Source: Botryllus schlosseri
Taxonomy: Eukaryota
Direction of reading: 5' to 3'
Length of the DNA stretch: 64,000 bases
Assembly (NCBI GenBank): GCA_051294905.1
Contig: CM119371.1
Location: forward strand, 8,682,001 to 8,746,000
Positions 10,315 to 58,561 of this stretch are shown piece by piece. The position numbers and the translations under genes were made by a program. The stretch's first letter is position 1; every line of letters starts with the position of its first letter. The notes beneath the pieces were generated by a model. The model ran no database searches, was not told the DNA's origin, and worked only from the letters and a program-made list of their open reading frames with translations.

Positions 10315-12899
10315 TCATCCACATTCTTCGGACTGGTACTGGGTCGATCCAACCACCTGAGTGAGGTTGGACACGCTCGTTGCACCGTTGTCGGAATCTT
10401 CCAGATAGCCCAACAGAACCATGAAGCCCCATATAATCAACGGAATGCATGCGCATGTCAACGCCACCTTCAGAACGAGCCAAGTACGCGAATTCAACTC
10501 GCCTTTAATGCTGCGATTGATCTTGTCATGGCGAGTTTTTTCGCTGATTGCGTCATCTGAAATAAAATGTCGCGACTGAAATATAAGCACGAAACGTTGG
10601 ACATTCGAAGTTTACCCCTTCCGACATTACCAGTCGCACAACACACTACATCCCAAGCGTCAGACAGCTCATATCAAACCGATACCAGGCGCTACAGTTA
10701 GAGTGCAGCGTGTACAATATGAGCTATGATCCAATTGAAGTGTGATATTTTATGTGGATACTGCGGCCGGTAACAGAATAAAAAATTGACCATGGATATT
10801 TTTCATTCAGGGAGACGTCTACTAACATTGCGGGAACAGCTGCGTACAGTGCAAATGTACATATAATCATGGACACCCGAACGATGAAAGTCGTGTTAAC
10901 ACTACTAACCCAGGCGGCTACTTGTCACTGAAGCAATTGCGCCATAATCCGGGCTGCTTAGACCTTCTTTGATTGTATTCTTCAATTGAGCCTTGGAGCT
11001 GCTCGAGCCATCCAGGACTCCCAAATCATTAGCCTCCTGGTTGGCCTGCTTCGAACTTCTCCCTTTGCCTTTGATTGTCTTCTTTTCTTCCAGTACACCT
11101 TGTGACATTCGAAGAATCGATTTACACAATGCCACAGCGACAATACGAAAATATTGAATATAGTTGGCATGGTGTGTTCGTAACCAAAGTTCTAAAATGT
11201 CCAAAAAATCGAGCAGACGGCACTCGCCGTACATTTTTCGGCTCGTTTGTACCGTGGGCCAAGGGCAAGAATTTAGCACGATCCATTTCAAGTGACGCCA
11301 TGATTAGTCTTAGCGATGAATGACCTAGGCATCTCCATATTGAAAATGTTATTGGATATTAATGAGCGCATTATATCCTAATGGCTACGCAGTGCGCTTC
11401 TGCGATGAAAGTTATCAGTGACCTTCCTAATTAACCACCATGGAAGAAACGATAGACCACATTGACGCTCTTCAACTATAGAAAGGAGTCAGCAGGGTTG
11501 TAATCAAGTCACAAGGCTCCGAGTCACAAGTCACTCTCACTTTTATAGTTTTGACTCGAGTCAATTCGAGTCAATTTCATTTCGTCCCCGAGTCAACTTC
11601 GAGTTCAAATCATTATGCAGAGGTTTGAGTCCGAGTCATGGGATAATGACTCTAGTCCGAGTCAAAGTCATTGTGTTGACTGCTCAGTTTCCAGTTACAG
11701 TCTTGTTAAACCCACTGCTATAACCCTATTTGGTGATATCGAATGGTTCTCATTTATAATACACTAATTCCCCTCACTCCTAATAGTTTCTGGTCGCCTT
11801 TTCAAGTACCAGTACCAATAGACAAAGCCCCAATTGGGTGGTTACTTTTCCATTCTTCAAAATTACAATGAAATGTCGGTCGTGGCCGTCTGAGTCTCGA
11901 GTAATATGACTTGGATCGAGTCATGCGCAATGACTCGAGTCCAAGTCGAGTCAATACACATATTGACTCGAATCGAGTCAATATCCGTATGTTTAGAAAA
12001 TGACCCGAGTCAGGATTGTTAAGTGACTGGCGACACAATCGAGAACTCCAAAGAACGTTTTGTACAAGATTGGGCGACATGGAACTATGTAGGAAGAATA
12101 TATCAAGTGTATAATGAATGGATCGGAACGCTCACTTACACCGGTAGCGTGCATTACAATTTTTGCCATGAAACAAAATGAATCGGCGTTACCGTCATTC
12201 GGATTCTTCTCAAGCAGGTCTCCGTAAACGACGCTCATATCTGGGGACGCGTAGTTGCAACCCTTTCCAAGTCTTACAGGCAGTCGTACACCTTTATCGC
12301 CGAATAGATCACACGCCAGATCATCCGGAACCTCCACTAAACAAAGTTTTGAATAGTGATTAAACATACAGGTTTGAACCGAGACGAGACAATATTTGAT
12401 CAATCGCAGCGTTAGGGCTTACTTGGCGAGGGTAACTGCGCTATGGAAACGCACCCAGTCTCGAATAAACTTGCATAGAGTTCAATAGCTAGTCGAGGCC
12501 TGGACAAAAGTCCGAACAGAACGATAAAACCATAATTTACACGGTCACAGCCCTGTAAAATAAGACATCTCTAGCCCTAGTAAAATTGCACTGCTGACGG
12601 TGACGGCCCTATATGTCAAATAACACTGCTGTTCCAAGGAATGTATCAGCAATAATGAGACCAACGAGCTTGCTTGAAAATCAGATTGACACTGTTGGGG
12701 TCAACAGATATAATGTCATATGAAATGTGGCAATTGGTTATATTATACATCTTCGTCGCTTTACAGACATCTGTAACCTATCGATATTGATCGTCTTACC
12801 ATCACGACCTGGAACAACGTCGTATCCGTCACCGCGGTCCTGTGCTGGATTGCCATGGCAAAGCTTGCCGGCAGATTGCTTCTTGGAGCTGATTGGCAT
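10315..12899 (-). CDS. Paralog 1 (most divergent) of a type-II single-pass membrane protein family with cytoplasmic ITIM-like motif; 4 coding exons, ~224 aa
   Basis: Exon A 12899-12800 (ATG; MPISSKKQSAGKLCHGNPAQDRGDGYDVVPGRD, donor G|gtaaga). Exon B 12336-12193 (tttag|, 144 nt, ...DMSVVYGDLLEKNPND, G|gtaacg). Exon C ~11098-10910 (acceptor uncertain; ...EANDLGVLDGSSSSKAQLKNTIKEGLSSPDYGAIASVTSSRL, G|gttagt). Exon D 10556-10315 (tttcag|; DDAISEKT...TM LVLKVALTCACIPLIIWGFMVLLGY...NLTQVVGSTQYQSEECG*). All junctions are phase 1 and homologous to the other three copies; AATAAA lies ~490 nt downstream. Confidence 0.7.
11493..12010 (+). mobile_element. GACTCGAGTC-family MITE copy (3'-truncated) in intron B-C of paralog 1
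   Basis: Begins CAGGGTTGTAATCAAGTC; colinear with 1093-1610. Confidence 0.8.
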
Positions 12900-26111: not shown

Positions 26112-29100
26112 CTACGGGCTACCATTGACCCGAAGCTCAGGGACCGTGTCGCGAGTAACATGCGTTAGAAGCCAAATGACCAATGCGATCATGAGAGGGG
26201 ATAAGCCAATCAACCCCAAGACAATACGCTTCTTCATCCTAGGCGATATCATTTCGTAGAGAGTGAAGCAGCATATCAGTCCCCAGAGTGTGAAGCAGCA
26301 TTCACCAACACACGTCCAACCAGGTCCATCATCGTTGATCATGTTGGGGTTAGCTCCCTCGTTATCACGGTTATCTTCTGGTAAATGGTCATCTGAAACA
26401 GTGACCCGGATGTTGGAAAACAGCAAGGTGGGGTCATTTCTACAGCGAGTCACCAGGCAAAATTCATAATTTGAATCTACTATCAGGATTATGAATTTAG
26501 CCAACACCACACATGCCATGAAGCCTATCAGAGAACTCGCGCGACACGAATGATCGACCCGAATATTAGTACCTACATATGTAGATTCAAAGTATTGGAT
26601 TCAATAATCGCATACCACACGCACGGAACCGCGCGTTCCAGCCGCCGTTATCAAAATGCACAAGATATTTTCACGTCCGATCAGTGTGTATGCAAGTCAA
26701 CGAATAAAAACGCTCCACAGTACAGGTAGTATCAACTTTTCTCGGTTCCCCGAAAGTCAGCATGTTTGCATTTCCTAATAACTGTCCCCAAGCACGTACA
26801 GTAGGCTATTTATCTCCCTGCGATTCTGGTAGCCGGCTGAAACTGGGCAGTCAGTTACCAGTATGAGATACCCTGGTTCCGAGTTCCATAGTCGATTCGA
26901 AGTATCAATTTAGCATTAAAACACCCCGAACAAATATTTCGAGCAACTTGGGAGTAAACGTTTGGCGTTCAGCCAAATCGCACAACTTACCTGATATCAG
27001 CCGAAACGGTCGGATATTCCAATGCACGCGATATCAACATCAATATTAGTCGAACTAGCGACCATCTACTTTAAAATCTGCCACACCGGTTGGACAGTCA
27101 TCGAAGAACACCACGGCGATGAAATTATTTTATGAATACCATTTACCATTGTGGCGACTAGTCGACGCCATTGCGCAGTCATCCTGTGAGCTTCCTGCTT
27201 CGTCTTTGATTGCCTTCTTGGCTTCGTCTTTGATCGTCTTCTTGGATAAAGTCTTGGATTTGACACCGTCCTCCAGAAAACCTGAATCATTGGGTTCCTC
27301 GTAGGGTCCAGACATTCCGTCTGTAACGATAGTAAAAGAAATACTATATTTACCGCCGTATGTTCAACGTTACCAATGTCGTATTCCTGGCATCCAGGCA
27401 AGGATATTCTGACGCTTTTGTGCGTGCACCAAGGGAAAATATCTGGCACACTTCGGGAAAATAGTGTATTCTCATCAGAAAATAGCTATCCGATATAGGA
27501 ACCTACCTCACGATTATACGGAAGTATAATGCGAACTATTTTACCACAACTGATGCTCGACAAATTAGAAGACGTCGAATAGAGCATGAAGGAAGGCGCG
27601 CACGTATGTAACGTAGGCAGGTCGGATTTACAACAAATGCTTTACGCGACCGCCATTTCCACAAATTAGTCAAAAGATTATAAGTAGGGCCATTCAAAGT
27701 CATTGTCATTCTTTTCCATGTCATTTTTTCTATGTATCAGTAAGTCGAACAATTTTAACGCAAAAACACGTCGTGAAACCAATTTTAAAGCAAAAACCAG
27801 ATCCCCACGAGGTATATTACGAAAGTTTTAGTCTTATAAAGTCATATTTTACTAGTTAGATCGTATACCAGCCTTTCAAGTAATAAGATCGTCTCTGGAG
27901 CACTCATCACCCATACTTGTTTTGATCGTCTCTGTGGAGCGCTCATTCTCCTTACTGAAGTCATTAATACGTCCAAATCGTACTACAAACACTATTTACA
28001 TTTCTAAAGTCGTTATACGTCCAAATCGTAACTTCAAACACTGTTTACATTCCACACTGCTACAACAGTGGTTTGAAATGAAAATGGATGTGTATTGCTG
28101 TTATGTTGCGTGTGTTTTAATATTTTAGTTCCATGAGTGGCGTTGTTCGCATGTAAAAATACATGATCTTCACATGCAAAAATACATCATTTTAACATGT
28201 AAAAATGCATGGAGTTTCACAGAAGTCATATAAAGTCATATTTTCCAAAAATTTAGTCATATTATCGATTTTTGAAGGTCTTACAAAATTTGCCCGAATT
28301 AATAGTATGAAAGATTGGACATGTAAAAGACAGACGAAAATGTCAATTGATAACGCTGATGACTAACTTTCAGTTATGGTATAAGTAAACATTATTTTTG
28401 TCACAAAGAAATGCTGTTCAGCCGCTGACAAGTCCAGCGAGATATTATATAGTCACACTGAGATCGCGGATTTCGAATTCTGTAGAAGTTCTATTTTCGT
28501 GAATCGCCTTTTTGGGTGTCGATGATCTTTTCTGTAAAATGTAGGCGGGTAATGGAATCCATTGGCATAAAACCACAGGATAATGGGTAAGTATTTCAGT
28601 AGATGGCCCTCTGCTTTCAGAAAGATTTTTAAATACGCAAGCAAACGAGCATACATACACTGGCGTGTCATTTCTTGGTCTTCATACCTCACGAGCTCAG
28701 GGATGAGAAATGACGAGGTAGCAACTTGGACTCAAGTCGCAAGTAATGACGTCGAAATGTCAGTGTCGACAATTTAACGGTATATTAGCAGACTTCACCC
28801 ATTGGATATGTGCCTCTGTATTAAGGAGGGAGCTAGTATACGCGCCTCTGCAGTAAGCACAGGTCAACATAAAATAGACTACCACGGCATGGACATCTGC
28901 CTATCAATGGCAAGCGTCAGAATGCAAACGAGGAGCGGCCAACAACTTCCTGAAAACGTTTGCGAAGATCTATAGCGTCACGGAGTTATTGACGACAATG
29001 ATCGACGTTGAAATCGTATATCGATATGATGTTGAACGTAACGACCACTCCCACCAGCAACATGCACCTACAATATCGCCGAAGATAAAAGATAAATTAC

Positions 29101-31700
29101 CGATAGTATCTAAATTACCGATAGTATCTTTCCTATTCTTCTCGGGCAGGTCTCCGTAAAAGACGTTCATATCATGCGGTCCTGAGTTGTTGTCCTTCGC
29201 AGATCCCACAGGCAGGCGTACGACTTTCTCATCGGTTTGGTTACGGGGTGATTCATCCAAAACCATCTCTATAAGAAGGCGTTTGAGCAATTTTAGCAAT
29301 TGTAACTTTCCTTGGGTGCTTGGCATATCCACGACTCAAAATGAGCTTGCATGAAATTTGACTACGCGCTATACAAATGAAATTGCTGGTCGAAACGGAA
29401 CGGGATTATCTATACCTACATACGATTTTTCGTGTTGTTGCGAAAATGGCATCTTTCAACATCGAACAACGTTAAACTATCGATGAATGATTCCCTGACG
29501 AATCAAACCTGTTACCAGTTATTCTACCGAACAACATATGCAACTAAAACTTTGCACCAATGCTGGAAATATATACTGAATGTCGTACCAAGATAGATGT
29601 CTGGATTTATGAAGGATCCGTCACCGGAGACTGGTCCCAGACTACCACAGTAAATCTTGATGGCAGATTGCTTCATGGAGCTCCCTGCTTCGTCGTTGAT
29701 TGCCTTCTTCAAACGGCTTTCGGATTTAACCTCGTCGTCCAGAAATCCTGAATCATTGGGTTCCTCGTAGGGACCAGAAATTCCGTCTGTAGCGATAGCA
29801 AAAGCGAGACCATTTACCAATGCATCTTGCAACGTTGGTAATGTGGTATTCCTTGCACCCAGACGAGGAGGAAGCTGTGTGTACTCGTACTTGGTGGACA
29901 ATCAACGTAAGACTATCGGCTCAATCCGAGCATTTGTGGATACACGCCTAGTGAAAATGGCGCATTCACGTCAGAAAATGGGTTCGGAAGCTACCTCACA
30001 TTTATACGGTGAGAAGTAGAAAGTAACACACATTTTAACCCAACTGATGCTTTGACAAATTAGAATGACCTAAGATTGAGTATGAAGGAACGTGGGCACG
30101 TATGAAGGTATGTATATTCACGTAGGACGGTTGGATTTACACGACACGCTTTACACTGCAGCAATATCCGCAAATTAGTCAAGAGAATACAAGTACCGAG
30201 GGATTGAATAAGTTCATGAACTCAAACCGTGCAGTTTAAGTAAGTATAACAATATTTTGAACATATAACGAAATGCCGTTCAGCCTCTGACAAGTCCAGC
30301 GAGATATTCTATTCGCTGAAATGTGATCGTGTCGCTTAAATATGAGCGTGTCATAGAATGGATTGGTATTAAACCAGAGGGTACTGTGAAAAGTATTTCA
30401 GTATATGGCCTGGTGCTTTCAGAAAATAGTTTCAAATACGCTGGCAAACGAGCATACATACAGCCCCGTGCCGTGTATTTCCCGTTTCAAATATGCTGGC
30501 AAACGAGCATACATACAGCCGCGTGTCGTGTATTTCCCGGTCTTCATATACCATACGATCTCAGGCATCACCTTTACCACGCGACATATTTATTATCGAT
30601 GGTGACGAAGTCGAAATAAACGATGTCGAAAACCAGTATCGACATTTTAAGGCTTACTGGGACACTTCACCCACCGGATATGTGTCTCTGCATGAAGGAA
30701 TATTAGACACCCGCCGCTGCAGGAAACTCCGGTCACCAAAATATAGACTACCACGGCATGGCAATATGCCTATCAATGCGTATCTGGAGCAAAGAGTCGT
30801 AATGCAAACGAAGAGCGGCCAACAACTTCCTAGAACCGTTTGCCAAGATCTAGCGCCACGGACATTGTAATTCTAGATGGAGATGGTATGGAACGTGACG
30901 ACAACTCCCACCACTAACATGCACTCTCAATTTCGCCTTAGAAAGAAAACTAAATTGGCGATACCATCTTTCTGATTCTTGTCAAGCAGATCTCCGTAAA
31001 ACACGTTCATACCCTGCGGTCCAGAGTTGTTGTCCTTCATAGATCCCGCAGGCAGGTGTACGATTTCCTCATCGGTTTGGTTACGGGGCGATTCATCCAA
31101 AAGCATCTCTGTGAAGCAAAGGTTTGTACGATTTCAGCAATCGCAACTTCGCGGATGGCTTGGCATATCCACGCCCCGAATAAATGTATGCATTAAATCT
31201 GAATACGCGCTTTGAAGGAAATTGCTAGTCCAAGAGATCGGGGTCATATATACATGATCTTTCGCGTAATTGCGAAAATGGAATCTTGCAACTATACGAC
31301 GACACCGGCAGTTGCTTGTTTGTGGTATTCATGGTGTTTGTCGACTACTATGGTCATTTACACCAGCAATTTTATTCCGTAACACCGGCATATCAGCCTA
31401 CATGATCGAATGGATATAGTGAAAGAACTGTTCAAGGGAGTTCAACTCTATTGGAATCCAGAAATAGCACGCGAAGTGGATAAGTCACAGTTCATGACAT
31501 CAGATATTCGACAGTGCAGACACCACGTTATTGTACCGAACAAGATCAACAAGTATAACGTTACACCCAGACTGGAAGTCTATTCCAAATGTCTCACCAT
31601 CATCGTTATCCGGATTATTGAAGGATCCGTCACCGGGGCCTTGTCCAAGATTACCAGGGTAAAGCTTGCCGGCAGTTTGCTTCTTGGAGCTGATTGACAT
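26112..31700 (-). CDS. Paralog 2: fused/internally duplicated member with exon order A-B-C/A-B'-C-D, two ITIM exons, ~349 aa
   Basis: A 31700-31598 (MSISSKKQTAGKLYPGNLGQGPGDGSFNNPDNDD, G|gtgaga). B 31108-30965 (EMLLDESPRNQTDEEIVHLPAGSMKDNNSGPQGMNVFYGDLLDKNQKD). Chimeric C/A 29786-29589 (DGISGPYEEPNDSGFLDD...DEAGSS|MKQSAIKIYCGSLGPVSGDGSFINPDIYL). B' 29268-29119 (...NVFYGDLPEKNRKDTI, shifted donor G|gtaatt). C 27320-27147. D 26392-26112 (Cys cluster, RMKKR, TM IVLGLIGLSPLMIALVIWLL). All internal exons are multiples of 3, phase 1, with no stops. Confidence 0.75.
27684..28295 (+). mobile_element. DNA transposon relic with hAT-like C-terminal fragment in intron of paralog 2
   Basis: Peptide SVERSFSLLKSLIRPNR (27930-27985), AAGTCAT subterminal repeats; absent from the equivalent intron of other copies. 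Confidence 0.5.
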
Positions 31701-32272
31701 TCCTTTTGCTCCTAACGGATTATCCACTACAATCGATACTTACTGTTAAAAATATGATCAGAACTTCAACTACGACCGGGGTTTTGACTCCCACGGTCAT
31801 AGCCTGCAAATATACACGTCACGATAACACATTTTCCAGCTCTTGATAACCGGAGCACCGCAAACCTGCTAAAAGAAGAATGTTAGTGGAATGCCAACAT
31901 CGATGGCAGTAGGCATATAGGAAACCAGACGGACATGGTTGATGATTAGAAGACGACCAATTAAACACTGATTACTGCAAGAGACAATCGCTGTTTTGCG
32001 ACGGTGATATTTCAATTAAACTCTCCATTGTCCTCTCCTAACCAAGGTATCGCTGTCTAGCGCCCACTCCTTGGTGGTCAACTGATATTTACGGTACAAC
32101 GATGAGATAACTGAATTCCGGGTACAATATCAATTGTAGTCAGACTCAAACAGCTAGAGTCTATGTTTCGGACAATTGAAATTATTACTGGGCTTTCATT
32201 TATTAAAATTATATTCAAGATAAACTTCAGAAGCCTAATATACAGATGCAATTTCTCATTAGGCCTATACAA

Positions 32273-37649: not shown

Positions 37650-40600
37650 TCAGCCTCTTCCTTCGGGCTTGTACTGACCTGATCCAACTCCCAGAGTTTG
37701 ATTGGGCAAGCTCGTTGAATCCGGGTCGGATTGATGAGGACCGCGCAATAGAAGCCACACGATCAATCCGATCACGAAAACGAATGATCCTACAAACGCC
37801 GCCACAATGCACCTCACCTTCCTAGGCGATGCGCAGAGTGCGAAGCAGCATTCATCAACACACGTGCCATCGGGTTCATCATTGTTGAGCAAGTCGGGAT
37901 CAGTTTCCTCGCTATGACGGTCATCTTCTGGAAAGTAGTCATCTGAAATAATAACCAGAATGTTGGAAATCAGTTGAACTACAGCGGGTCCCAAGGCTGA
38001 AATTATAATTTCAATCTAGTAACACCACGCATGCCTATCCCGTCTTCCCTACATCTCTATAGATTCTACGCATATATCTGTTTTGAGACTAGGATTATAT
38101 AATCTCATATCACACGACGCCGCGCATCTCAGCTGCCGTTAACAAGGTGCATAACATACTATCACGACCCATTCAATACGTCTGCAAATCCCCGAATAAA
38201 AACGTTCCAATGTACATGTAGGAATAACTCCCTGCGATCCCCGAAACTCGGCATGTTCAGTCCTCGAAAAACAACTGTCCACAGTATATGTAATATTAAC
38301 TCTGCGATCCCTGAAACCGGGCAGGGAATTACCAGTTTTGGATACCTTGGTTCGGAGTGCCATAGTCAATATTATTGCGGTTTCGAAAGCGTGTCAGTCT
38401 TCTTTACACGCGATATCGATTTAGTGATACAACACCTCGAACATAGTTTGATCAACTTAGAGTCAACGTTTGACACCAGACTGATGATGCGACCCGCAAC
38501 ATAGACGAGATGGGCATAGGCGTACGACAGGCCTGGTTGAGTGCGGCCCGCGGGCCGAATCCGATCCGCGGAGCTATTCTGTGCGGCCTGCGAAAGGTTG
38601 CTTGAAATTGAAAATATAGAACCTACTTTTTAATGTTGCTGCGTGGACTGAAACCATAGGATGTATAAACTGAGCCGAAAGTTCGTTTACTATCAAGTCT
38701 GTTCATTAACATACCGCGATTACGCAGGCTTACGTACCTCACGTGCCTAATCCTGATTCAAAGTGAAGTCAATGTAGCAAATTATGCCGTTACAATTAAA
38801 GTCACAAGTCCCCGAACCTTTTTTGTTGCCATTGCCACATTACGAATTACACGGCCTGCGTTTCAAATTGTTACGTGATGTTGTTCCAAATCCCTAACAA
38901 GTCAATCACTGCCCGTGATTTCTATGAGTATATCACCACCCATAAACGATGTAAAAAAAAAGAAAGCCGAAATTGGAAATTCAAACATTGTTCGGAGCAC
39001 TAAATATTTGATTACTACCAGTCTTTTTAGTAGTTAGTGCCAAGCACGTCGCCGTGTTCAAGGAAGTATTATTTAAGTCGCTTCTACGACTAAAACACGA
39101 AGACATAGGGCCTACACTCGATCAATGGACAGCAAATTTTGGAATACCTGCAAGCTTGGCTTAACAACAAGTACATTGCAGCAAGCTGCACACTTCTCAT
39201 AATTCAGCCACCAAGACAAAAGGCTTTACAGGATCCCCAGGACCGTAACTGTGGCACCCAAACCCCCAATTGGGGAGGGGAATCTCGAAGGGCGCCCAAA
39301 ATTGTTTCGTGAACGACCAAAAATTAGAGAGTAGTTTTTGAATATTTATGCAACTTCTTACAAATTTTTCTCGGGCTAGGCGCGATTTCGAGATCAATGA
39401 TTATAGAATTGGGTATTTCGGCGTAAGCCATTACCGCGCCATGACATACCAAGATATATCAAGTGCAGGCCAACACGGTATTCCGAGAAGGCACGGCAAT
39501 TGCAACTGCTGATCAAATTAAACAAGTAAAAGCTCGACAGCGAAAAAGCCTTGGCCCAAAAGGACTGTCCTCATGTAGACCGAAAACCACGATCTCCAAT
39601 GGTCCGTAGGCATTATTTTCAGGTGACGAAATATCAATTGGGAATCGTGCATGTGCGATTTCTAGTTTAGTATACGCTTTGACAATTCCAATATATTTCT
39701 CATTTCAGACGTGAGGTTACGAAATAACAACATCTAACGAAGTAATTATACCTACAGGTCCTCTCGAATATTTCCATGACAGCACCTCACTCTGCTCTAG
39801 CGGTAAAACTGAGTACGAGGGCATAAAGAGGTTTAAAAAATATAGCTATATATATATGACATTCCCAATATTATTGACCTATTGAATCCTGAAACATGGA
39901 AAAATTCCGCGTTTCGCGCGGTTCGGGCATAAAACGTTGCCAAATAGTGTATATAAGAAATCTCGCTCAGGAGTAATGTTAAAACATGCATCATGATGGG
40001 TCTGGTCTGACGGCGAAGCTTTCAGTTCAGAAATAAAACCAATACGCTGGAGAAGACAGCTAAAATTTATCGCCCCGCCAACATATTTTCTGCTTCTCAT
40101 TTGACCCGCGGAGAAAAATAATACCTCTGGCGTACAGAAAAGAAGTTAGGTCGCTACCTCATAATCAGCCGAACCAGCAGGATATTCAATAAACATGATA
40201 TGTACTTCCATAACTAGCCGGGCATCCAGTGATAAACATGGTGATGAACTTAATTTTATAAATACCATTTACCATTTACTATAGTCGATGCCATTTCGCA
40301 GTCATCTTGGGATCTCCCTGCTTCGTCGTTGATTGTCTTCTTCAATATGGATTTGTATTTAACCGCGTCGTCCAGAAATCCTGAATCATTTGGTTTCTCG
40401 TAGGGTCCAGACATTCCGTCTGTAATGGTAGCAGAAGCAAGGCCATTAACCTTTGCATCTTTCAACAACGATAATGTGGTATTCCTGGTACCCAGACGAG
40501 GAGGAAGTAAGACTATAGAGGTTTAATCCGAGGATTTATGGATACACCAAGGGATAAATTTCCGACACACTTACTGAAAATGGTGCATTCACGTCAGAAA

Positions 40601-43600
40601 ATGGGTATACGATATCGGAAGCTACCTCACAATTATACGGGAAATAGAAAGCAAACACATTTTAACCGAACTGATGCTTTGACAAAGTGAATGGCCAAAA
40701 ATTGAGTATGAAGGAACGTGGGGAACGTATGAAGAAATATTCACGTAGGCCGGTTGGATTTACACCGAATGCTCTACATTGCATTCATATCCAAAAATTA
40801 GTCAAAATAATACAAGTACGAGGGATTGATCAAGTTCAAGGTAAAAATGTCAATTGATGATGTTGATGAACTCAAACCATGCAGCCGCTGACAAGCCCAG
40901 GGAGATACTCTTTCCGCTGGAATGGGAGAGTGTCATAGAATCGGTTGGTATAAAACCAGAGGGTAATGTGAAAAGCATTTCAGTATATGTCCTGGTGCTT
41001 TCAAAAAGATTTTCAAATACGCTAACAGTCGAGCATACATACACCCGCGTGTCGTGTATTTCCCCGTCTTCATAACATACGATCCCAGGGATGAGAATGA
41101 GTCAGGTATCAACTTTACTACGCGACGTATTTATTATCGATTGTGATGAAGTCAAAATGGAACGACGCCGAAAGCCAGTATCGAGAATTTAACGGCTTAC
41201 TAGGACACCTCACCCACCGGATATGTATATCTGCATTAGCGAACATTAGATACCCGCCGCTGCAGGAAACTCATCTCATCAAATACAGACTACCGCGGAA
41301 TGGCGATCTGCCTATAAATGCTTATCTGTAGCAAAGAGTCATAATGCAAACGAAGAGCGGCCAACAACTTCCTAAAACCGTTTGCCAATATCTAGCATCA
41401 CGGATATTGTAATTGTAGATGGAGATTGAGATTGATATGGAACGTAACTACCACTCCTACAACTAACATACACTTAAAATTTCGCCGCAGAGAAAAAAAT
41501 ATAAATTGAGGATACCATCTTTCTGATTCTTGTCCATCAGATCTCCGTAAAACACGTTCATTTCCTTCGGTCCAGAGTTGTTGTCCTTCATAGATCCCAC
41601 AGGCAGGTGTACGACTTTCTCATCGGTTTGTTTACGGGGCGATCCACCCAAAAGCATCTCTGCAAAGTAAATGTTTGTACGATTTCAGCAATCGCAACTT
41701 TGCGGATGGCTTGGCATATCCACGCCTCGAATAAATGTATGCATGAAATCTGAATACGCGCTTTGAAGGAAATTGCTAGTCCAAAGAGAGCGGGGTTATA
41801 TATACATGATCTTTCGCGTAATTGCAAAAATGGAATCTTGCAACTATACGACGACACCGGCAGTTGTTTGTTTGTGATATTCGTGTTGTTTGTCGACTGC
41901 TATGTTTATCAACACCATGCCGATATCCTTCATTTTTATTCTGTACACTCTTAAAAACTGGGCCCACCTTTAAAGGTGTTTCAAAAAAAACCTTCAAAAG
42001 AGGAGGGAAATTTTCTACCTTATCTCACCTGGTGGTTATTTTCCCACCTCATCATAAGATGGGCAACTTTCCACCTTGTCCTATCCGGATTCGGCTTCAT
42101 CCTACCCGGATATCCTCGAGGTACAGCATATAAGCACACTTTAAGCTTTCACAAAACACTAAATCACCTTCATTCCAATGCCTTTATTTGCAAATTAGTC
42201 ACGAATGTGATCCAGTTTGGCATAAGCTGCAGTACTGATGTCTTTTACACCTGGCAAACGCGCCAGAAAAACTGACATGACAGTCAGAAACTGCATTTCG
42301 AAGATCCAACGAATTTCTAGCATCACTGAAAATGCCTCATGGAAGCTCTCGATATTCTTCACCTTTTCAACATCAAACCAGACGGTCCACTCTTTCTTCA
42401 TTGTATCGTAGCAAATTGTAGGACACGCGGATGTGGGTGTCTTAACGAAATATATTATTATGTGAAAGAAGCATCAGGTCAAACATACGCTTAACACACA
42501 CACACAGACACACACTGATGTTATTTCAGTAATCAGCTTATGAAATATACCGGCAGCAGGGCACTGCGGATCCTATTTTCAGTCAACATATGATATCAAA
42601 TAGCAAATAGGCATATGTATATGCGGACTTGGCCAGGTGGAAGTGATGACCATTTTGAGTCATCAGCTAATGTGAACAGTAACCTTTGTGGCTCTCAATT
42701 TTTTGTCGGTGCGGACCCTTTTCTTAACCATCAAGGCAAGGCATCCGTACAGACACCCCTTAAGTTTTAGTTCAAATCATGCTCAATAATAGTGCAACCG
42801 TCATCCACCTCTTGTCAATAGTCCTTTTTTTGCAAGTTGCAAAGGTACATCTTGGCGAGTTTGAAGTAGCAACCTTGGATAACTGCTGATATCTACTTTT
42901 TGAAACTACTTGAGTACTTTGCAGCCCTTCATTTCCTACTTGGTTGAAGTAGCTTTGACATGGATTTGAAATCACTACTTCTACACTATATACTAACCTA
43001 GAAATATCCGAAGTGATGCTTTACCCGAGCTAAGAAAATCACAAATTATATTATCATTCAGGTTAAAAATTTAGAGGTCTGCAAACACCATAAAGATGTG
43101 CTTCACGGACCCAGAGTTAGCACTGCGGGTTGTGGGACCGAGCTGAAAAGGGAGCATGGGCTTGTAACACCGGTTTTAGGTTTGCTCCTCACTAAAAAAG
43201 GTTGAATACACCACATTGAGAGAAATGTATTGATACTATAATTCAATAATTGATATTATAAAACGTAATTTTCAGTATTTAAAATTGTCTCCGAATCTCC
43301 ACGACTCGACTACAGTTGAAGCTCGATTTTGTGCCAGTAGTGGAATAGTTTTATCCATCCCAAATTTCAAGCTAACAGGTATATTTATAAAAATCCGTAC
43401 CTGTTGAACCTGGAAGAAATTGCCACATCCTTCATGAAAAATTGTAGGTATAGAAACAATCCGGTCTAGATTTTGAGATGCTGTAAAACAAAATATATTA
43501 TAAGTCCAAGTTGATCACTGAATACATACAGGTCAACATCAACTCATTACAATACAGCAGAGTGGAGTGCGTCAACGCGTCGCGTCGTAATGACGGATTA

Positions 43601-46600
43601 GTACAGATTAAAAACAGTGCGAAAATTGATGCCGTGCAATTGCAACATGACTGAAGAACGCTTTATAGGCTTATATCATGAGAGGCAATTAATAGATGGA
43701 AATTACCTACTCAATCAATACAAATATTTGAAGAGATCAATGCTTATGTCAAAATCAACAGCTTTATTACAACAAAGGTAATAGATATAATAGCAGAAAG
43801 AGAAAAACATACCAATCACAATCCATCATTTTGTCTTCGGGACATCGATGTCAGCTTCTGCGCTTCATCCTATCAATCATATTTTCAACCAATTCCGCGT
43901 TGAGGGGAAATCATGCTCATCTCGTCTTCAGGGACAGAAGACGAAACCGTTTTCTGCAAAGCAGTCGAAATTTGAAATATGCAGTGAAACAGAATAAAAA
44001 ATTCATTGGGACAATAAATTTGTGAAACCGAACCTCAAATTATTTTTTCAACAGGTGAAGCAGCAAAAATGAGCAGATTTGAATTTATAGGCTTTAGTTT
44101 GCCTTGGTGAGCCAGTCGAACTTTTCATGCTACTAGTAGGGCTGGGCAAAATCGAGTACCTGAGTGATTCAATTCTGAATCACGTAATATGCTTCGAGTC
44201 GGGTCAAGTAATCAAGTATCACTCATTATGACGTCATAACAGAATGTAAGATGTCAAAGTTAAAATATGTACCGTTTATGCCACCACCAAGAATTTAATG
44301 CCTTTTATCAATCACATATAAAATGCCCTGGTATTTTACGACTTCGCCAATTTCATTCGACTTGGTGACAATGCTGTTGGATGATCATGACTTCGGAAAT
44401 ATGCTACGTCCAGTAACCTTGGTAGCTTTTGTACTATAGGTTTCGTAAGCTACGATACCGCCAATCAAGGTTTAAGGCTTTAACTGTGAAAATTAGTATC
44501 GAAACTATAATTCTCGGGTATAAATTAACTTTCAGTGGAGAGAAGCGTAATATCAGTACCGGTACTAGAAAACATCGTATTTTACTACTCGACTCGAATC
44601 ATAAAAATTAATACTAGATTCAGGTTTGGGTACTCGAATCATTGTGCCCAGCCCCAGCTACAAGTGATAGTCAGCCTGCCAGTCGCCTAATTGTGCTGCG
44701 TACACCAATTCCCTACTGGATATACTATATAGCATGGTTTCATATTAGAAAATGACCATAAATTGCAGTTACTTCTAAAATTTTCAAACAATTATTTCAA
44801 CTGAACTGAAACAAAGCTCACTCTGACTTAAGCATGTAAATTTGAAAAGGCAAGTTTGAAGCATGAAAATTCATTAGTCCATTATCGTCTCACCTTCATT
44901 TCTTCACGTGGCGTAATGTAACCTCCATTCTCCAATATGGCGGCCGATCGTCAGACAGCCGACAACGACAGGAACAGTTGAGCAACTATATACGGGTTTA
45001 TGCTAGCGAGAACAGAATGCGTTCATACCGCATTCCTTAACAGCAAGAAGCGGTTCATATTTAAAAACGTACAGCTATTGCCTGTGTAGTAAGAATAAGC
45101 ACAACTCATAAGAATTCGCTTCATAATGAACTTCAAGAGGAGATGACACGCGCCGCCAACGCGGTCTCTCCGATCTGTCTGCTTCGAGGTTCAAACGCTG
45201 CTAAATTAAAGCGTAACCGACATGGCTGATCAGTCAGCATGAGATATTAGAATCTTCGCTTTTTGTGTTCGAATTGCTACTTAGTACACTAAATAAATAT
45301 TATAACTATCATTATTGAGTACAGACTAGAAATTGACTGAATAGGATAGTAAGATGTAAGTCGAACCATAAGCAAATTGGTGTTTATGAAACTCGATGGT
45401 TGAACGGGGGTTCCCTTGAGAATGTGGTTCCCGCGGAAACTCAGCTGACTTCACGGAATCGCCGCGCAGGTAACTGATGCGTTGCATTAATTTAGTATAT
45501 ATTAATCGATATTATTTTCGTAGGTAAATGCATTCATTGCTATGGATCAAGCCCAGGCTGGTTCCGGGAATATATGAATACGTTTAAACCGCTGATACCA
45601 GTCACGTCTTTGAAATGCGTAAGCAACATAATGAAGTTTCTGTGCAGTGATGTGATGATGAATGCTGAACGAGCAGTGGTACCACTCCTAGTGTTTTAAC
45701 ACTAGATCTAGTGTTTTTTCGGTCTTCCTAGTGTTCTAGTGTTTTTTTTTGCATAATTTTGCTAATCTAGTGTTTTTTCTTCAATTGTGCAAACAATATT
45801 CTAACATTAGACTACTAAATTATACGCTAAATTTATCGCTAATAAGGTGATTTGGTGTCTCTGGCTGTGTTTGTTTTCAACAATTCTATGTTGTGGTGCA
45901 GTAACAAGCAATTATCACATAACAGGGTGGGCTGTGAATCAGTACTTATGAGCGAAAGTCTTGGGAAAAAGAGCGGTTTCGCTCTGATGGTCTATCGTTT
46001 CTTGTTGAATTCACTCTGCAGATTCGGGCAAGAATTCTATTTGCCGAGGACAGCATACTTTTGTAGTTGAGTGTATTGAATCCGTTAACAGTCTTATATC
46101 AACACAAAGAAAAGTAAAATCAATCATTCCTCTAACTGCGCAATTTCTCTTTGTGATATTATTTGATGAACTTGATGATTTGTCGGAAAAATGTGCTGAT
46201 TTGGCAAATTCGCACAATGAGCTGCAGGTTATCAGTCAACATAATTTCGGCAAAAATTGAAATCTGTGCAAAATGGATTCGGTGAATCAAAATTCCCATT
46301 ACTGGGGAAGCTCATCACGAATCTCTTGGCATTGCCACATTCCACTGCATGTGTGGAAATGAAGTATACTGCACATGGACACCTCCCCATTGTTTGGTTG
46401 AAGATGTACGGTAGTGAGCAAGATTGCACACAAAACATACTTATGTGTGATGTGTACAATCGAAAAATAATTTTATGGTACCGCACAATTCGAAAGCGAC
46501 AATATTTGATTTTTTCTTACTCTATTGAATTTTTTATTAATTTTTGTTGTCTAACCATGCAGTATATCATACATATGTATCCAATTCATGTGCGTTGCAC

Positions 46601-49532
46601 TTCTTATCTATGGATTTGTACCTTCGTCATCATGATTACTTGGCAACGGCAAATTTTTTACCAATCTAGTGTTTTTTTCGCCAATCTAGTGTTTTTTCAC
46701 GACATAATCTTGTGTTTTTCCAAGAACCTAGAGTGGCAACACTGTGAACGAGGACGACGGCAGGTTCCTGCAAGCGAGCTGCAGAAGTGTTTGTTTTCGA
46801 ATTCAGTTGTTCGTCAGAGATTGATTCTTTATACTGCCTGTTCATCAGCCATTAGGTTACTTGATACCAGTTGTCAGGATGACAGAAGAGCGAGGTGTCG
46901 GTGTTGTTGCAGAGGTACCGTAACTGGTGGTTCTGATTTCTGCTGTCATTTGGAATGATTGTGTGGTGAGGTAATGTATGAATATATGCTGGCATGGTCA
47001 ATTAGTCATGTTTATGATTTCGGAAACACACTGGAACTAAAGTACTACCGGTACTCTCTGATTGATTGCGCACATCATCATGCTGATTATATAATAATAT
47101 TTATATTTCCTATTCATTGCTGTGCTGCTTTATCAAGTGATAATTTTGATTGATTCAATAATTTTGTTTGATACATGGCTGTTCTGTGACTCCTTACTTC
47201 TTGTCAAAATTTAGTATCATTCTTCAGGAGTATTATGGTAGGAGGCCTAGTGGTCTCGGCCAAGTCACAGTAACACAATATTTAATTTTGTTGTTGGCAT
47301 CAGCAATGCATCATGGCATGCCTGGGTTACTTATGTTTACCCTCTCCGTAAAGCAACTAATATTGCTTTCTCTATTCTCGCAGTCTTTTTATCTTATTTT
47401 CCCTGCCTAGTTCCTACCACTTGCATTTATATTCAAAATATATACCGTACCTAAGATTGATTTGAAATTTAATATATATAAACCCTTTTAAGGCATTTGT
47501 TGATACTAATTTTTTGATTATAATGTTCATATCTGTTTTGCAGGCTATATTTATGTGAAATAGCACTAAAGCAATAGCAGGATTTTTTTCGGATCCTAAT
47601 TTTGTTACTCAGCTGTCGGACTCCGAAATCCTATTTGACTGTTGGATCAGGACGGATACAGATTCCCCAAATCTGGAATCCACCCATCTCTGAATTCAAC
47701 TCATCGTGCTTTCACTTCCTCTTTTGCTTTTGGCCTCATTGGCGGACGGACTTCTAGTAGCCTAAAGTCTCTGCAGCTTTGTTTAATCGTGTGTGATCAA
47801 GTATAGACGGAGGTTTTTACAATGGCGAGCACGCTAAAACCGTTACTTCATTAATTTGGCTGCAATTCTCAAGATTCCTGGACAGTAACGGTATGCTGAA
47901 AGATTGGCAGAAATTCGATTACGGCATTGGCTATCTGAACCGATTGAAGAAGCAGTTTTGCATCAATATGAGCAGTTTGAAGACTTGACTGGCTGCTTCA
48001 CTTCATAATAACTGTTTCACTGGCTGAACTGATGTAACTTGACTGGCTGCTTCACTGCATAATAACTGTTTCACTGGCGGAACTGATGTAAGCGCGCGTG
48101 GAAGGGATGGAGCTTGTGTCTCTCCCGGTCCGGTAATTCTCCCCGTGATGTGGCGCGGCGTTGTTAGGGTTTTAGTTTAGGGAATTTGTTCATTGATGTT
48201 AGTTTGGGGCTAGTGTTCTGCTAATGTGGTGCGGTCATGCCCGTGTTTGCGGTTTTGTTGATGATTTTAACTTTTTTATGGTATTTTGTGAGACTGCTGC
48301 TATAGGCACTTTTCAAGTTCGATCGGAATAGTGTAGCAGCTGTGTTCTATACTGTTCCTTACGTCAGTTGTAGTATCATCGCATCGTGCTTTCACTTCCG
48401 CTTTTGCTACTGACCGCTTCGGCGGACGGACGTGTAATAAAGTCTCTTCAGCATTTTTGAATCGTGTGTGATCATGATCAACTACAGATGGAGGTCTTTT
48501 ACAATTATGCATTCGCATTCAGATTCATTATCAGGTGATAAAAAATGTGGTTGAAGGCGAGATCGATAAGTCAGGCTGTAGTCCTGTAATCATGATCTGA
48601 CTATGGTATTGATTCAGTATAAATTGTGTGTATTTTGATTTGAATGTGGACCTGTTCCATAACTGTCGGAGCTGTGCAGATTTTCATAAATTATAAAAAA
48701 TAACTGATTTCGAAAAACCTGGAAATCGAATTTAATTACACTGAAATTCCGGACATTTACGGGCGTATGTAGCAACCCAAACATTAATAAATTTCCGTTG
48801 CATGACCAATCAGCTAAGCAGAACTCGTCAACTTACGCGTACTTCATCTGACGCCATGTGTTCGGACTGCCGTCCCAAGTCATAGGGGGCTCGTTCCGCA
48901 GCATTTGTAATATTTCACGGGTTTACCAAAAATAACGTTACGACAGCTTTTGTATATTTGTTGACGACGACGCAGTATATGATCTCGCGCGAAAATACAT
49001 CTTCCACCTCCCAAAACCCTCCTTATAAAGTGATGTATCGTATATCACTTTATAGGAGAGTTTTGGGAGGTGGAAGATCTATTGTCGGAGGTGGGAAGAC
49101 GTACTTCACCGAGGTGTATAGCATGTTCCTACCTCTCGTGAAAGGAGGAATTATCGTTTCCACCTCAATTTTAGCAAAAAACCCACCTTTATTTTTTACA
49201 GTGTAACACCGGCAGTTAACATTCTACATATCAGCGTACACGATCGAATGGATCGAGTGAAAGAACTGTTCGAGGGGAGACCAACTCTGAATAGCACGCG
49301 ATGTGGGTAATCCACAGTTCGTGACATCACACTTTCGACAGTGCAGACAACAAGTTATTCTACCGAATAAGATCAACGAGTAGCCTATAACTTTACACCC
49401 AGACTGGAAATCTATACTGAATGTCTCACCATCATCGTTATCTGGATTATTGAAGGATCCGTCACCGGTGCCTTGTCCAAGATTACCACGGTAAAGCTTG
49501 CCGGCAGAATGCTCCGTGGAGCTGGTTGACAT
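37650..49532 (-). CDS. Paralog 3 of the ITIM-like type-II membrane protein family, 4 coding exons, 228 aa; intron 1 expanded by a 7.3-kb transposon
   Basis: A 49532-49430 (MSTSSTEHSAGKLYRGNLGQGTGDGSFNNPDNDD). B 41659-41516 (...EMNVFYGDLMDKNQKD). C 40419-40273 (DGMSGPYEKPNDSGFLDDAVKYKSILKKTINDEAGRSQDDCEMASTIVN). D 37942-37650 (DDYFPEDD...TCVDECCFALCASPRKVRCIVAAFVGSFVFVIGLIVWLLLRG...NQTLGVGSGQYKPEGRG*). Canonical cag/gt sites, all phase 1. Confidence 0.8.
38528..40129 (+). mobile_element. hAT non-autonomous element in intron C-D of paralog 3
   Basis: Left end CAGGCCTGG..GCGGCCCGCGGGCC, degenerate right end, TSD gcgtacga/gcgtacag; absent from the same intron of paralogs 2 and 4. Confidence 0.7.
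44137..44656 (-). mobile_element. TAGGGCTGGGC-family MITE nested in the CACTA-like element
   Basis: TIRs and TSD gctactag/gctacaag. Confidence 0.85.
45674..46744 (+). mobile_element. Internally deleted hAT element with dimerisation-domain remnant, nested in the CACTA-like element
   Basis: TIR CAGTGGTACCACTC/GAGTGGCAACACTG, perfect TSD tgaacgag, CTAGTGTTTT subterminal repeats, peptide KFPLLGKLITNLLALPHSTACVE. Confidence 0.9.
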
Positions 49533-54329: not shown

Positions 54330-57300
54330 TTAGGGCTGGTGTTGATCTGATCCTACCCCCGATCTTAGTTGGGCAGGCTCGTCGATTCCAAAACTGACCA
54401 ATGCAAGCCAAATGATCAATCCGAGCACGAAAACGGCTGCGACTCCCAACACCACCGCAATGCACCCAATCCTCATAGGCGATTCGCAGAGTATGGTGCA
54501 GCATTCATCAATACAATTCTCGTCAGATCCATCATCGCTCCTCAAGTCGGGGTCAGTTTCTTTCCTATTACGGTTCTCTTCTGGCAAATAGACATCTGAA
54601 ATAATAACCTGAATGTTGGAAAACAGCGAGTCACCAGTCACACCAAACGGACACGCATGTTCGACCCGATTATTCGTACCTACATCTGTGGAGCCGAAGT
54701 ATACACCTGTTTTATGACTACAATCGTATAGCACACGACACTGCGCGTCCTAGTGCCGGTAACAAAGGTTCATGAACATTATTCTCACGCCCTATCACCC
54801 TGTACACAAGTCCCCGAATAAAAACGTAACACAGTACATGTGAGTATTGACTCTGATCCCCGAAACTCGGCAGGCAGCTACCAGTTTGATACACCCTGGA
54901 TCAGAGTGTCATATTACCCAATATTGCGGTTTCGAAAGCGTGTCAGTCTTCTTCACACAAACGATATCAATTCAGCATTAAAACATCCCAAACATATTTT
55001 GACCAACTTGAAGTGACCGTTTGACACCAGACTGATACTGTGATCAGCGACATGGACAAGATAGGAACAGTAGTATCACAACTTTCCTCATGTCAGCCGA
55101 AAATTCATTGAAGCTGAAGTAACAAACTGGCCTCGTATAATCAGCCGAAAATTAATTGAACGCGATATGTACTTCCATTATCACCGCTCCAGTCGGACAT
55201 TCAGTAAAGCACACTACGGCGACGAAATTAATTTTATAAATACCCTTTACCATTGCGGCGACTAGTCGATGCCACAGCGCACACATCCTGTGAGCTTCCC
55301 GCTTCGTCTTTGATTGTCTTCAATCTAGTCTTGGATTTCACCGCGTCCTCTAGAATTCCCGAATCATCGGTCTCCTCGTTGGGTCCAGACTCTCCGGCTT
55401 TAATGATAGAAAAACCAATGGATTAACCACTGCTTCTTGAACGTTGAAAACGTCGTATCCCTGCAACCAGACAAGCGGGAAGCTATGTACTCTTACCTTG
55501 GGGAATTCAACCCAAGACTCGGGAGGTTTAATCAGACGGAAATCAAGCGAAAAAATATCCGGCACACTTAGTGTAAATAGTGTATTCACATAGGAAAAAG
55601 AATACACAATTTTGGAATCTACCTCACAATTATTACTTTATTATACGCGGCGTATTTATTATCGATTGTGATGAAGTCAAAATCAACGACGTCGCGATGA
55701 AATTGTCGACAATTTAACGGCTTTCTGACACACTTCACCCTCTCGATACGTGCATGTGCATAATCGCACATTGGATAGGCCTATCTTAAAATCGACTACC
55801 ACGATATGACAATCCACCTATCTACAGCAAAAATTCGTAATGAAAACGAAGAGCGGCCAACAACTTCCTTGAACCGTTTGCCAGATGTAGCGCAGTGATT
55901 CTCAAGCTTTGACCTCGCGGCACCCGTTGGAAAAGAAAAATAGTTTGCGGCACACCATCACATTGGTTCTTGGTTCTGAACTTTTTTGGTTTACGGCAGA
56001 CTGCGGAGTACATGTTTATTACTCGCCAGTATACAACACACTGATTGCAGGCTGAAGCCTTTAGAAAACAAACGGAAATAATATTACAACACTCTTCACT
56101 GCGATCAATCAACGTATTGTTCAAAACTGAACTCAGCCTTCTAGGCACGCGATATTACCGGTATAGAGTGAATTCAAGGGGTTGTTTGGGGCTGGGCACA
56201 ATGATTCGAGTACTCGAATATGAATAGAGTGGTAATTTTATTGATTCGAGTCGGATAGTAAAAGGCGATTTTTTTCGAGCACTGAAATGACACGCTCCTC
56301 GCAACTGTAAGTTAATTTACTATCGAGAAGTATGGGTTTGACAGTATTTTCTACTAACGAAGCCTTGAAACCATGATTGTCCGTGTCGCAGCATACGAGA
56401 CATAGTACAAAGCTACCAACGTTACTGGAAATATCACATTACCGAAGTCGTGATCTTCCGACAACATTCCAGTGTTGGGATGACTCGAGCAATGACTTGA
56501 CTCGAGTTACCTTTTTCGCTTTTTCGTGCGACTTGACTCGCTCGTATTAGAAATGTGGATTGACTCGGTGACTCTGAGCAAAATTCACGAGGTAATTTCA
56601 AGTCATCAGTGTCGTTAAAATTCACTTTAACTTGCATATGTTCGGATTGTTCGCGAAACACTGATGGAACACCCGAGAGCGACCAATAATTCATTGATCG
56701 TACGTTTTACTGATCCTCCATTGTTCTCTTACGCTATCGCTAACTAGTATAGTAAAGTAATTTATTACAAAATGTCTATTTCTGTTCTATGTTATTACCT
56801 TAAACAAAACCTCGTTCTAGTGAAATTGAATTCGAATATAATCGATCCTCAACCATTGGCGCAGGCTCAAATTGTATCATATCAATTTGCAAATGGGAAA
56901 TTTACGCGTATTGTATCTTATCAATTCCTTTCTCTATTCTCTATTTGGCCGTTAGCTATAAACTGAGACTATGCAATTACTTACGTAGTCCTATACGTAT
57001 ATGTGTGCGATACAGCGCCATCTTCCGTGTATATTCAACTCAAAATCAATGGTCACTCAAAATCTGTATTTCAGACAGCTAGCAAAATGCAATGACATAA
57101 TCATACCACATACTTCGAAAAGGCGACTTGACTTGAATTGTGACTTGACTTTGACTCGAGTCACCCCAAAAAATCAAGCGACTTGACTTGACTCGAGTCA
57201 ACGTCGACAATCGATTGACTTGGCTTGACTCGAGTCAAAATGTGCAATGACTCGACACTGAAAGGTAGTGAGTTGAATCCAATACTGCAACATTGTCGAG

Positions 57301-58561
57301 AACTTCAATAAAATCGGTATGGCCGAAAAAATACCAAAGCATCTTCAATGTGATGCATAGCGCATCCAGTGTATTTTTTGTTGTGGCATAAAAGGTCCGC
57401 ATTTGAACTTTGACATAATACTCGACTCGGAAACACGCGATTCAGAATCGAATCACGCAGGTACTCGATTTTATCCAGCCCTAGCTTTTGATTGCGGCCA
57501 TAGCATCAATTTTGATTTATCAAATGTACATACTTCACGTAAGTGGTACTCGATATTATCCAGCCCTAGCTTTTGATTGCGGCCATAGAATCAATTTTGA
57601 TTTATCAAATGTACATACTTCACATAAAGCTCGATTTAGATTGACAGTTTGCTATAGATTAGAATTGTTTTGCGCCTAATTTCAAAATTCAGAAAAGTTC
57701 CCTCGCGGTATACTTGCGAGACGTAAATGGCACACTAATGTGCCGCGGCACAGCGGTTGAGAACAACTGATCTAGCGTCACGGGGTGACGGTTACAATGA
57801 TTGACGTTGCAATTGTAGATCGAGATGATGTGGAACGTAACGACCACTCCCACCACTAGCATGCACTCGCAATTTCGCCGAAGAAGGAAAACACATTGGA
57901 AATACCATCTTTCTGATTCTTCTCAAGCAGATCTCCATAAAAGACGTTCAAATCCTGTGGTCCAGAGTTGTTGTCCTTCGCAGATCCCACAGGCAGGCGT
58001 ACGGCTTTCTCATCGGTTTGGTTACGGGTCGATTCATCCAAAAGCATCTCTATAAGAAAGGATTTTGAGCCATTCCAATTGCAACTTAGCGGATGGCATG
58101 GCATATCGACGCCTCGGATTAAATGTATGCATGAAATTTGAAAAGCGCTTCAAATGAAATTGCTAGTCGAAAGAGAGAGGCATTACATATACATATCTTT
58201 TTAATAATTGCGAAAATGACATCTTGCAACTATACCAGAACACCGGCAGGTAACATTATACATATCACCGTGCACGGTCGAATGGATAGAGTGAAAGAAC
58301 TGCTCAAGGTAGTCAAACTCTATTGGAGTCCAGCGGGTTATCCACAGTTCAGGACATCATACTTTCGACTTTGCATGCAGACAACAAGTTATTCTACCGA
58401 ACAAGATCAACAAGTATAACTTTAAACCCAGACTGGAAATCTATACTGAATGTCTCACCATCATCGATATCTTGATCATTGAAGGATCCGTCACCGGGGC
58501 CTTGGCCAAGATTACCACGGTAAAGCTTGCCGGCAGATTGCTTCATGGAGCTGATTGACAT
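54330..58561 (-). CDS. Paralog 4 of the ITIM-like type-II membrane protein family, 4 coding exons, 219 aa
   Basis: A 58561-58459 (MSISSMKQSAGKLYRGNLGQGPGDGSFNDQDIDD). B 58049-57906 (...DLNVFYGDLLEKNQKD). C 55397-55251 (aag acceptor; AGESGPNEETDDSGILEDAVKSKTRLKTIKDEAGSSQDVCAVASTSRRN). D 54595-54330 (DVYLPEEN...NCIDECCTILCESPMRIGCIAVVLGVAAVFVLGLIIWLALVSFG...HQP*). All phase 1, open throughout. Confidence 0.8.
55893..57769. mobile_element. Charlie-type hAT MITE in intron B-C of paralog 4, containing two further nested MITEs
   Basis: CAGTGATTCTCAA/TTGAGAACAACTG, TSD atgtagcg/atctagcg. Nested TAGGGCTGGGC MITE ~56187-57483, itself containing a CAGTGTTGG element 56470-57287 (TSD caacattc/caacattg). 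Confidence 0.85.

Follow-up and report, generated by a model that had tools for sequence, protein, structure and literature searches.

The minus-strand exon at 29589..29786 of the 64-kb stretch of Botryllus schlosseri DNA analysed here (the window, meaning the whole stretch) begins as one exon of a tandemly arranged gene family and ends as another. This raises the questions of whether two neighbouring genes have been fused in frame, and whether the fusion has doubled the tyrosine motif VFYGDL, a putative ITIM, as a first-pass annotation of the locus had proposed. The fused gene is real, expressed and common to several individuals, and it belongs to an orphan family. The best explanation of its features, and a reasonably probable one, is that two paralogues were fused by a deletion-type event, that the first copy of the motif is spliced out and that the product works as a one-motif adaptor like its paralogues.

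The gene family and the chimeric exon

Self-comparison of the window revealed a four-gene family, with all members on the minus strand and an A-B-C-D order of exons. Gene 1 (54330..58561, 219 aa) and gene 2 (37650..49532, 228 aa) are unfused, gene 4 (10315..12899) is a divergent paralogue that retains the motif as VVYGDL, and gene 3 is the fused one. The coding part of its exon A (31598..31700) starts with an ATG at 31700 and is followed by a first exon B (30965..31108 in the full form, 144 nt, with the first VFYGDL), the chimeric exon C/A, a second exon B, designated B' (29119..29268, with the second VFYGDL and its 3' end placed at a candidate donor), the exon C of the downstream parent (C27, 27147..27320, 174 nt, with a 24-nt internal repeat and a second YEEP) and exon D (D26, 26112..26392), which encodes an acidic linker, Cys pairs, a single hydrophobic segment, a short C-terminal tail and the stop. 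This A-B-C/A-B'-C-D model, as the annotation had drawn it, gives an uninterrupted frame of 349 aa, provided that B' takes a new donor.

The chimeric exon (minus strand, 29786-29589) is 198 nt long, is flanked by ...ctacag on its 5' side and gtacga on its 3' side (AG..GT), stands in phase 1 at its start and end and reads without a stop as GISGPYEEP...DEAGSSMKQSAIKIYCGSLG...NPDIYL; its description as an in-phase exon using an exon-C acceptor and an exon-A donor is thus borne out in the sequence. The position of the switch from C to A, proposed to lie at GAGCT (29678-29682), agrees with the limits of the self-blastn matches: the match to the exon B/C region of gene 2 (40310-41917; 79% over 1716 nt) stops at 29677, and the matches to three A exons (76-80%) start at 29682. 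The exon-C-derived part (29683..29786, 104 nt) carries a YEEP and is 87.5% identical to C40, the exon C of gene 2, and 75-79% to the other C exons. The exon-A-derived part (29589..29682, 94 nt) starts from the fourth codon of the downstream parent and creates the sequence Y-L-E-M across the join with B'. The junction microhomology itself (29678..29682), AGCTC on the minus strand, is in frame in both parents.

The 5-mer had been reported from both parental exons, and this stands only for the downstream side. It was found in 3/3 close A exons and in two of the three intact C exons (C27 and C55), but C40, which among the C exons is the closest relative of the upstream parent, reads AGATC, so that in the upstream parent its former presence can only be presumed. 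When C40 and the A58 region are joined at random, 0.7% of the junctions show a microhomology of at least 5 nt, which suggests that the join was guided by microhomology. The ATG of the downstream parent sits just three codons before the junction in exon A, and this parent was therefore kept almost whole.

Four runs out of 24 were compared: X1 and X5 with genomic-type contigs, X6 with spliced contigs and X13 with raw RNA reads. X6 was treated as RNA, since its contigs are spliced at CT..AC ends, the record itself being silent on this point. X1 possibly represents the source sample and thus is not independent; X5, X6 and X13 come from other samples. Both genomic-type runs bridge the junction, X1 with a 1288-nt contig showing 0 differences and X5, of a different sample and study, with a 904-nt contig showing 13 differences and an 8-nt intronic gap. 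In X6, a 414-nt contig consists of 44 nt of A, 96 nt of B (31108-31013), the chimeric exon at its full 198 nt, which differs at one position, and 76 nt of B'. Its CT..AC joints include 31108-31598, which was also seen in X13, and 29268-29589, which confirms the acceptor of B'. A second X6 contig joins C27 (one difference) and D26 (two differences) to 89 further letters, which fit either of two B' donors (29125 or 29119). From A to D, the two X6 contigs meet over a stretch common to a paralogue, and none spans the whole gene; bins 29833-30867 have no depth in X6 or X13. Four X13 reads with allele-type changes lie at 29670, in the A part, and, judging from the tables, they appear to cross the junction. 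The X5 change at 29737 recurs in 4/6 minus-mate X13 reads, and that at 29608 in 2/2. Traces of the chimeric exon are present in all four runs compared.

A mis-assembly, for which the possible identity of X1 with the source sample might speak, can practically be dismissed, as X5 and X6, which stem from different samples and studies, have the junction together with variants of their own. Nor is the chimeric exon left out of all transcripts, since the X6 contig joins the whole of it to B and B'. Another X6 contig joins A directly to B'; its 97 nt of A carry 9 differences, where genes 1 and 2 each show 8, and more likely represents the transcript of a paralogue rather than an isoform that skips the chimeric exon. 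For the regions 26107-26934 and 28798-29004 it was noted that X5, which has the junction and B', shows no depth at 90% over D26. This hole proves nothing, and in X5 the fused allele may have another 3' end.

Several other features of the window were recorded. Intron 1 measures about 7.8 kb in gene 2 (41660-49429), where it contains repeated, transposon-like pieces, and 0.3-0.5 kb in gene 1 and gene 3. Intron 1 of the fused gene carries at 31312-31366 a remnant, about 55 nt long, of a very high-copy, transcribed repeat, with a contig depth of more than 160,000 vs 16 nearby and RNA reads with poly-T loose ends; the repeat is presumably SINE-like. A 305-nt element is present in two copies of 95% identity (32272-32576 and 62009-62314), the first of them just upstream of the fused gene. 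By eye, a hydrophobic 26-codon frame (minus, 31720-31800) starts from an ATG upstream of the main one, at 31800; this frame ends before the main ATG and contains a GTAAGT donor-like site. About 80 nt directly 3' of the stop are conserved in genes 1-3 (26033-26120, 37560-37660 and 54258-54337) and are a candidate 3' UTR element or alternative end; in the post-stop region of gene 2 another frame continues for about 30 codons into a Cys-rich tail. At 2122-3197 (plus), fragments with weak THAP and TNP-like RNase H matches, below curated cut-offs, mark a decayed P-element-like transposon.

Ancestry of the two halves

The relationships of the two halves were analysed as a quartet: both halves were compared with gene 1 and gene 2 over seven homologous segments, and gene 4, being too diverged, was excluded. 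Thirty-three informative sites pair the upstream half with gene 2, three pair the two halves and three support the third arrangement. A sister relationship of the halves is rejected by the AU test (p=6.5e-5), and the bootstrap is 100. By segment, the upstream half shares 82-95% identity with gene 2, its sister, and the halves are 70-87% identical to each other over the seven segments. The downstream half shows 70-90% identity to all others, and appears by this comparison to be an older paralogue. The parts of the fused gene thus derive from two different parental genes, which supports the in-frame fusion of distinct tandem paralogues by deletion, one of the two origins that the annotation had offered. 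The other, an unequal crossover of the ordinary homologous kind, does not agree with a C-to-A join that is out of register. In-register non-allelic homologous recombination was rejected as well, since exon C is joined to exon A and the homology extends over just 5-6 nt.

An identical architecture, with the same microhomology, would also be produced by a tandem duplication inside one gene, from AGCTC in A to AGCTC in C, or by one duplication event spanning genes 1 and 2. The identity values and the AU test given above speak against the intragenic form, in which the halves should be closest to each other. The form across genes 1 and 2 predicts equal ages of the halves, whereas the 3' end of intron 1 gives 95% vs 73%, and it predicts the order gene 1, chimera, gene 2, whereas the actual order is gene 1, gene 2, chimera. 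A later gene conversion of the entire upstream half, which formally could have taken place, would reconcile a duplication with these data. Taken together, a duplication of either form is very improbable.

The simplest history would be a deletion-type join of a gene-2-like copy and an older paralogue, repaired at a microhomology of 5-6 nt. The gene-2-like copy, which would be fairly recent, might have supplied the promoter, A, B and the 5' part of C, and the older paralogue everything from the fourth codon of A onward. The product would then be the downstream paralogue with an N-terminal extension of about 100 residues, probably expressed under the promoter of the upstream gene. Gene 2 may have been duplicated earlier, or restored later by unequal exchange, either order being possible.

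Splicing of the first exon B and changes since the fusion

In the DNA, VFYGDL is encoded by both B and B'. In the X6 contig with the chimeric exon, however, B has the short form (31013..31108) of 96 nt, not 144: contig positions 45-140 directly abut 141-338 (29786-29589). The short form ends exactly at an internal donor, AGG/GTATGA, in phase 1, whose GT lies at 31012-31011. This GT is present in one of the five B exons of the window and absent from the four others, and a point change from GAT to GGT in the first B exon is proposed to have created it. The internal donor lies upstream of the native one (ATG/GTATCG), has the consensus G at +5 and matches the donor consensus at five positions, the native site at four. 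Its use cuts out 48 nt (16 codons) in frame, the first VFYGDL among them, and leaves a transcript with one YGDL, two YEEP and the new YLEM. The sole contig that can be assigned to a C/A transcript thus lacks the first motif, and the doubling of the ITIM asserted by the annotation finds no support in it. Since the new donor is used, the observed transcript has one VxYxxL, like those of the unfused genes, and it is YEEP that is doubled instead.

The short-B joint was read from the aligned-piece table of one assembled contig, and contigs drop rare variants. This contig shows 9 differences in 96 nt against the B exon of the window, but 1 in 198 for C/A. In X5, two contigs cover the B region, one of which keeps the internal GT (depth 69.9, like its gene-3 neighbours). 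A joint from full B to 29786 was found in one gene-2-like X6 contig and in two X13 reads; the latter equal in number the two gene-2-type reads, and gene 2 or gene 3 is equally possible as their source. At 31012, 14/14 X13 reads are without the donor base; ten of them are also without the neighbouring change of gene 2, including one with just two other differences. These reads fit exclusive splicing at the internal donor as well as a gene-3 allele in which that donor is missing, and a two-motif isoform is possible, the raw X13 reads being ambiguous. The region around this exon (30975-31304) is unusually variable, with 19/318 differences plus gaps in X5 and the above 9/96 in X6, compared to about 0.6-3% in the flanks; the excess might represent either a gene-conversion tract or relaxed constraint.

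One explanation might be a regulated or allelic switch, in which the internal donor, or the presence of GT-bearing and GT-less alleles, produces one- and two-motif forms. The in-frame cut removes precisely the most conserved segment, the GT is common to the window and the X5 contig, and the X13 reads allow a GT-less allele or a full-B form; in Botryllus, FcoR3/4 are described as exchanging motifs through alleles and splicing (PMC12582321). On the other hand, at read depths of 2-14 no transcript was assigned that joins full B to C/A, and a usable donor arising from one substitution may be an accident in a redundant copy. A switch of this kind is rather unlikely. The same low probability is given to the wider proposal that the gain of a splice site after the fusion serves as an in-frame motif switch, with alleles or isoforms toggling between one and two motifs, and so provides motif dosage compensation in a young chimeric gene.

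The downstream half has changed too. In the window haplotype, B' has lost its original donor at 29125 (ATA/CT), and two phase-1 G/GTAATT sites, 6 and 24 nt beyond it, are candidate donors (29119 and 29101); an 18-bp duplication occupies this donor region (29093-29129). Private changes amount to 14/94 in the A part of the chimeric exon, 13/55 and 29/182 in the adjoining intron and 9/144 in B'. Compared with the other three, pN and pS are 0.20 and 0.12 in the A part, and 0.076 and 0.19 in B', all from small counts. B' also has an L to P change after the motif. Positive selection on the A part was considered and rejected, the counts being small and the adjoining intron equally diverged. By its rate of change the A part would be a spacer under little constraint, and the overall pattern fits a spacer-like extension on a still-constrained downstream copy, or slow decay.

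Slow decay would be expected if the fusion were a tolerated accident, a gene in drift or decay that is transcribed without contributing anything. Besides the near-intronic rate of change in the A part, the lost donor of B' and the L to P change, pN is near pS in most pairs, which is consistent with this explanation. Against it, the six exons are without stop or frameshift, the X5 junction contig has no exonic gap, pN in B' is below pS (in small counts) and the exon left traces in every run. A tolerated accident is thus a possibility of some weight, though not the favoured one. The preferred reading is still that the change from GAT to GGT in the first B provided a new donor, used in the observed transcript, and that the protein most likely acts like its paralogues, as an adaptor tethered to the membrane that provides phosphotyrosine docking (or a sorting signal) via one invariant motif.

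The predicted protein, its motif and known systems

The models of gene 1, gene 2 and the fused gene (333-355 aa for the last) are without internal stops. Each has one hydrophobic segment, located 18-33 residues from the C-terminus and preceded by basic residues, and an N-terminus without a hydrophobic stretch. According to the positive-inside rule, a basic flank faces the cytosol, and the long arm is therefore predicted to be cytosolic. The fused product would thus cross the membrane once, with its N-terminus inside, and its long cytosolic arm would be of low complexity.

Homologue searches returned 0 matches for the chimeric exon, 0 for the exon-D alignment and 0 for the exon-B alignment with longer proteins. 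Pfam matched 0/11 family segments, and 2/16 other frames, both with weak transposase-type hits. A profile search gave six matches, two of which are unnamed exon-B-like fragments (P0002 and P0005) with the pattern V-x-Y-[GE]-D-L; the other four, driven by repeats in long unrelated proteins, were rejected. The best score in the Atlas comparison was 0.80, which is lead level and gives no confident match. No named homologue of the family emerged across these homologue, Pfam, profile and Atlas searches, and no description of the family or the fusion was found in the literature by title and abstract start, supplements and subscription papers being outside this scope. The exon-B tyrosine is the sole tyrosine kept in all copies. 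Other tyrosines vary: gene 1 has NEET for YEEP (55389-55380 region) and gene 4 has LCHG for LYRG (12800-12899).

YxxPhi sequences are a class of sorting and endocytosis signals, and YGDL fits this pattern. If the motif were such a signal and not a phosphatase-docking ITIM, the number of motifs would affect trafficking rather than inhibition. The predicted protein has no ectodomain for a ligand, and the residue at pY+1, Gly or Glu, is unusual for SHP1 sites as these are described in PMC8631942, but Val at Y-2 is invariant in 5/5 window exons and in both outside homologues, as an ITIM requires. A sorting function is possible, though it is not the likelier one. The ITIM consensus, given as I/L/V-x-Y-x-x-I/L/V (bioRxiv 10.1101/2024.10.16.618699), fits all five B exons of the window (VFYGDL or VVYGDL), and the designation of the motif as a putative ITIM is a consensus match only. 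About 11% of shuffled cytosolic arms contain this consensus, so that the case for a function lies in conservation and not in the match. YLEM was considered as a PI3K site and dropped, YxxM occurring in 23% of shuffles.

The annotation had further suggested that both VFYGDL motifs are present in the protein and engage the dual SH2 domains of SHP-type phosphatases better than the motif of either parent. Both motifs are intact in the DNA, the first has not decayed, the full-B model is an open frame, and the two X13 reads running from full B to the exon-C acceptor may belong to gene 3. However, in the full-length form the two tyrosines are 114 residues apart (48 if C/A were skipped, which was not observed), compared to the 25 residues between the motif tyrosines of PD-1 and BTLA, a spacing of the order expected in a bivalent SHP1/SHP2 receptor (PMC8631942). 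Both motifs have Gly at pY+1, where the SHP1-docking type has a medium non-polar residue, and Gly at this position is reported to impair SHP1 recruitment in PD-1 (PMC8631942). With the first motif also absent from the X6 contig, and with a consensus that is weak alone in view of the shuffles, stronger dual-SH2 engagement is disfavoured, and the two-motif model is improbable.

Transmembrane adaptors such as LAT, PAG and TRIM have an N-terminal anchor. The predicted proteins resemble them in a single membrane segment, an almost absent ectodomain, membrane-near cysteines and several cytosolic tyrosines, but differ in an anchor at the C-terminus, 18-33 residues from the end; tests for homology to adaptors of this type gave no positive result. 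The motif VFYGDL is similar to the ITIM of PD-1, VDYGEL, both being V-x-Y-G-acidic-L. In PD-1, a type I receptor, this ITIM is described as weak and as working with an ITSM 25 residues away (PMC8631942); the proteins described here have no ITSM and no sequence homology to PD-1. The Botryllus FcoR proteins, described as type I proteins of 520-610 aa with a signal peptide and an ectodomain (bioRxiv 10.1101/2024.10.16.618699), likewise form a multigene family of an invertebrate chordate; they have tyrosine motifs, recombine between genes and swap motifs by splicing (PMC12582321). Membership in FcoR was nevertheless rejected, as the proteins encoded here are of 219-349 aa, with a membrane segment near the C-terminus and without a signal peptide or ectodomain.

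Gene fusion within tandem clusters is a familiar phenomenon, and the event itself is ordinary. The fusion described here is a clean and datable case, with an allelic difference of about 1.4% over the junction (in one comparison) and with 5-18% separating the upstream half from gene 2, and its junction, parents and transcripts are all visible. The point that deserves note is the in-frame splicing-out of the duplicated motif, which might, at low probability, act as a switch or as compensation. If such in-frame loss of a duplicated motif proved general, the number of motifs in the family would be constrained or tuned, and the fused gene offers a natural comparison of one with two motifs for learning the role of this orphan family.

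Chimeric genes of Drosophila reportedly arise from tandem rearrangements via duplication, in which a gene body is placed behind the promoter and 5' part of a neighbouring gene. The arrangement of promoter and body is alike in the gene described here, but its parents are paralogues, and the gene order and the ages of the halves point to a deletion-type join. Another parallel is provided by the KIR2DL3/2DP1 and KIR2DL1/2DS1 hybrids, which are described as having a typical exon structure and breaks in repeats (PMC2816608). In both systems a deletion between adjoining paralogues would yield an open-frame hybrid in a variable cluster; unlike in the KIR hybrids, the join in the Botryllus gene is out of register, lies inside two non-homologous exons and makes the protein longer.
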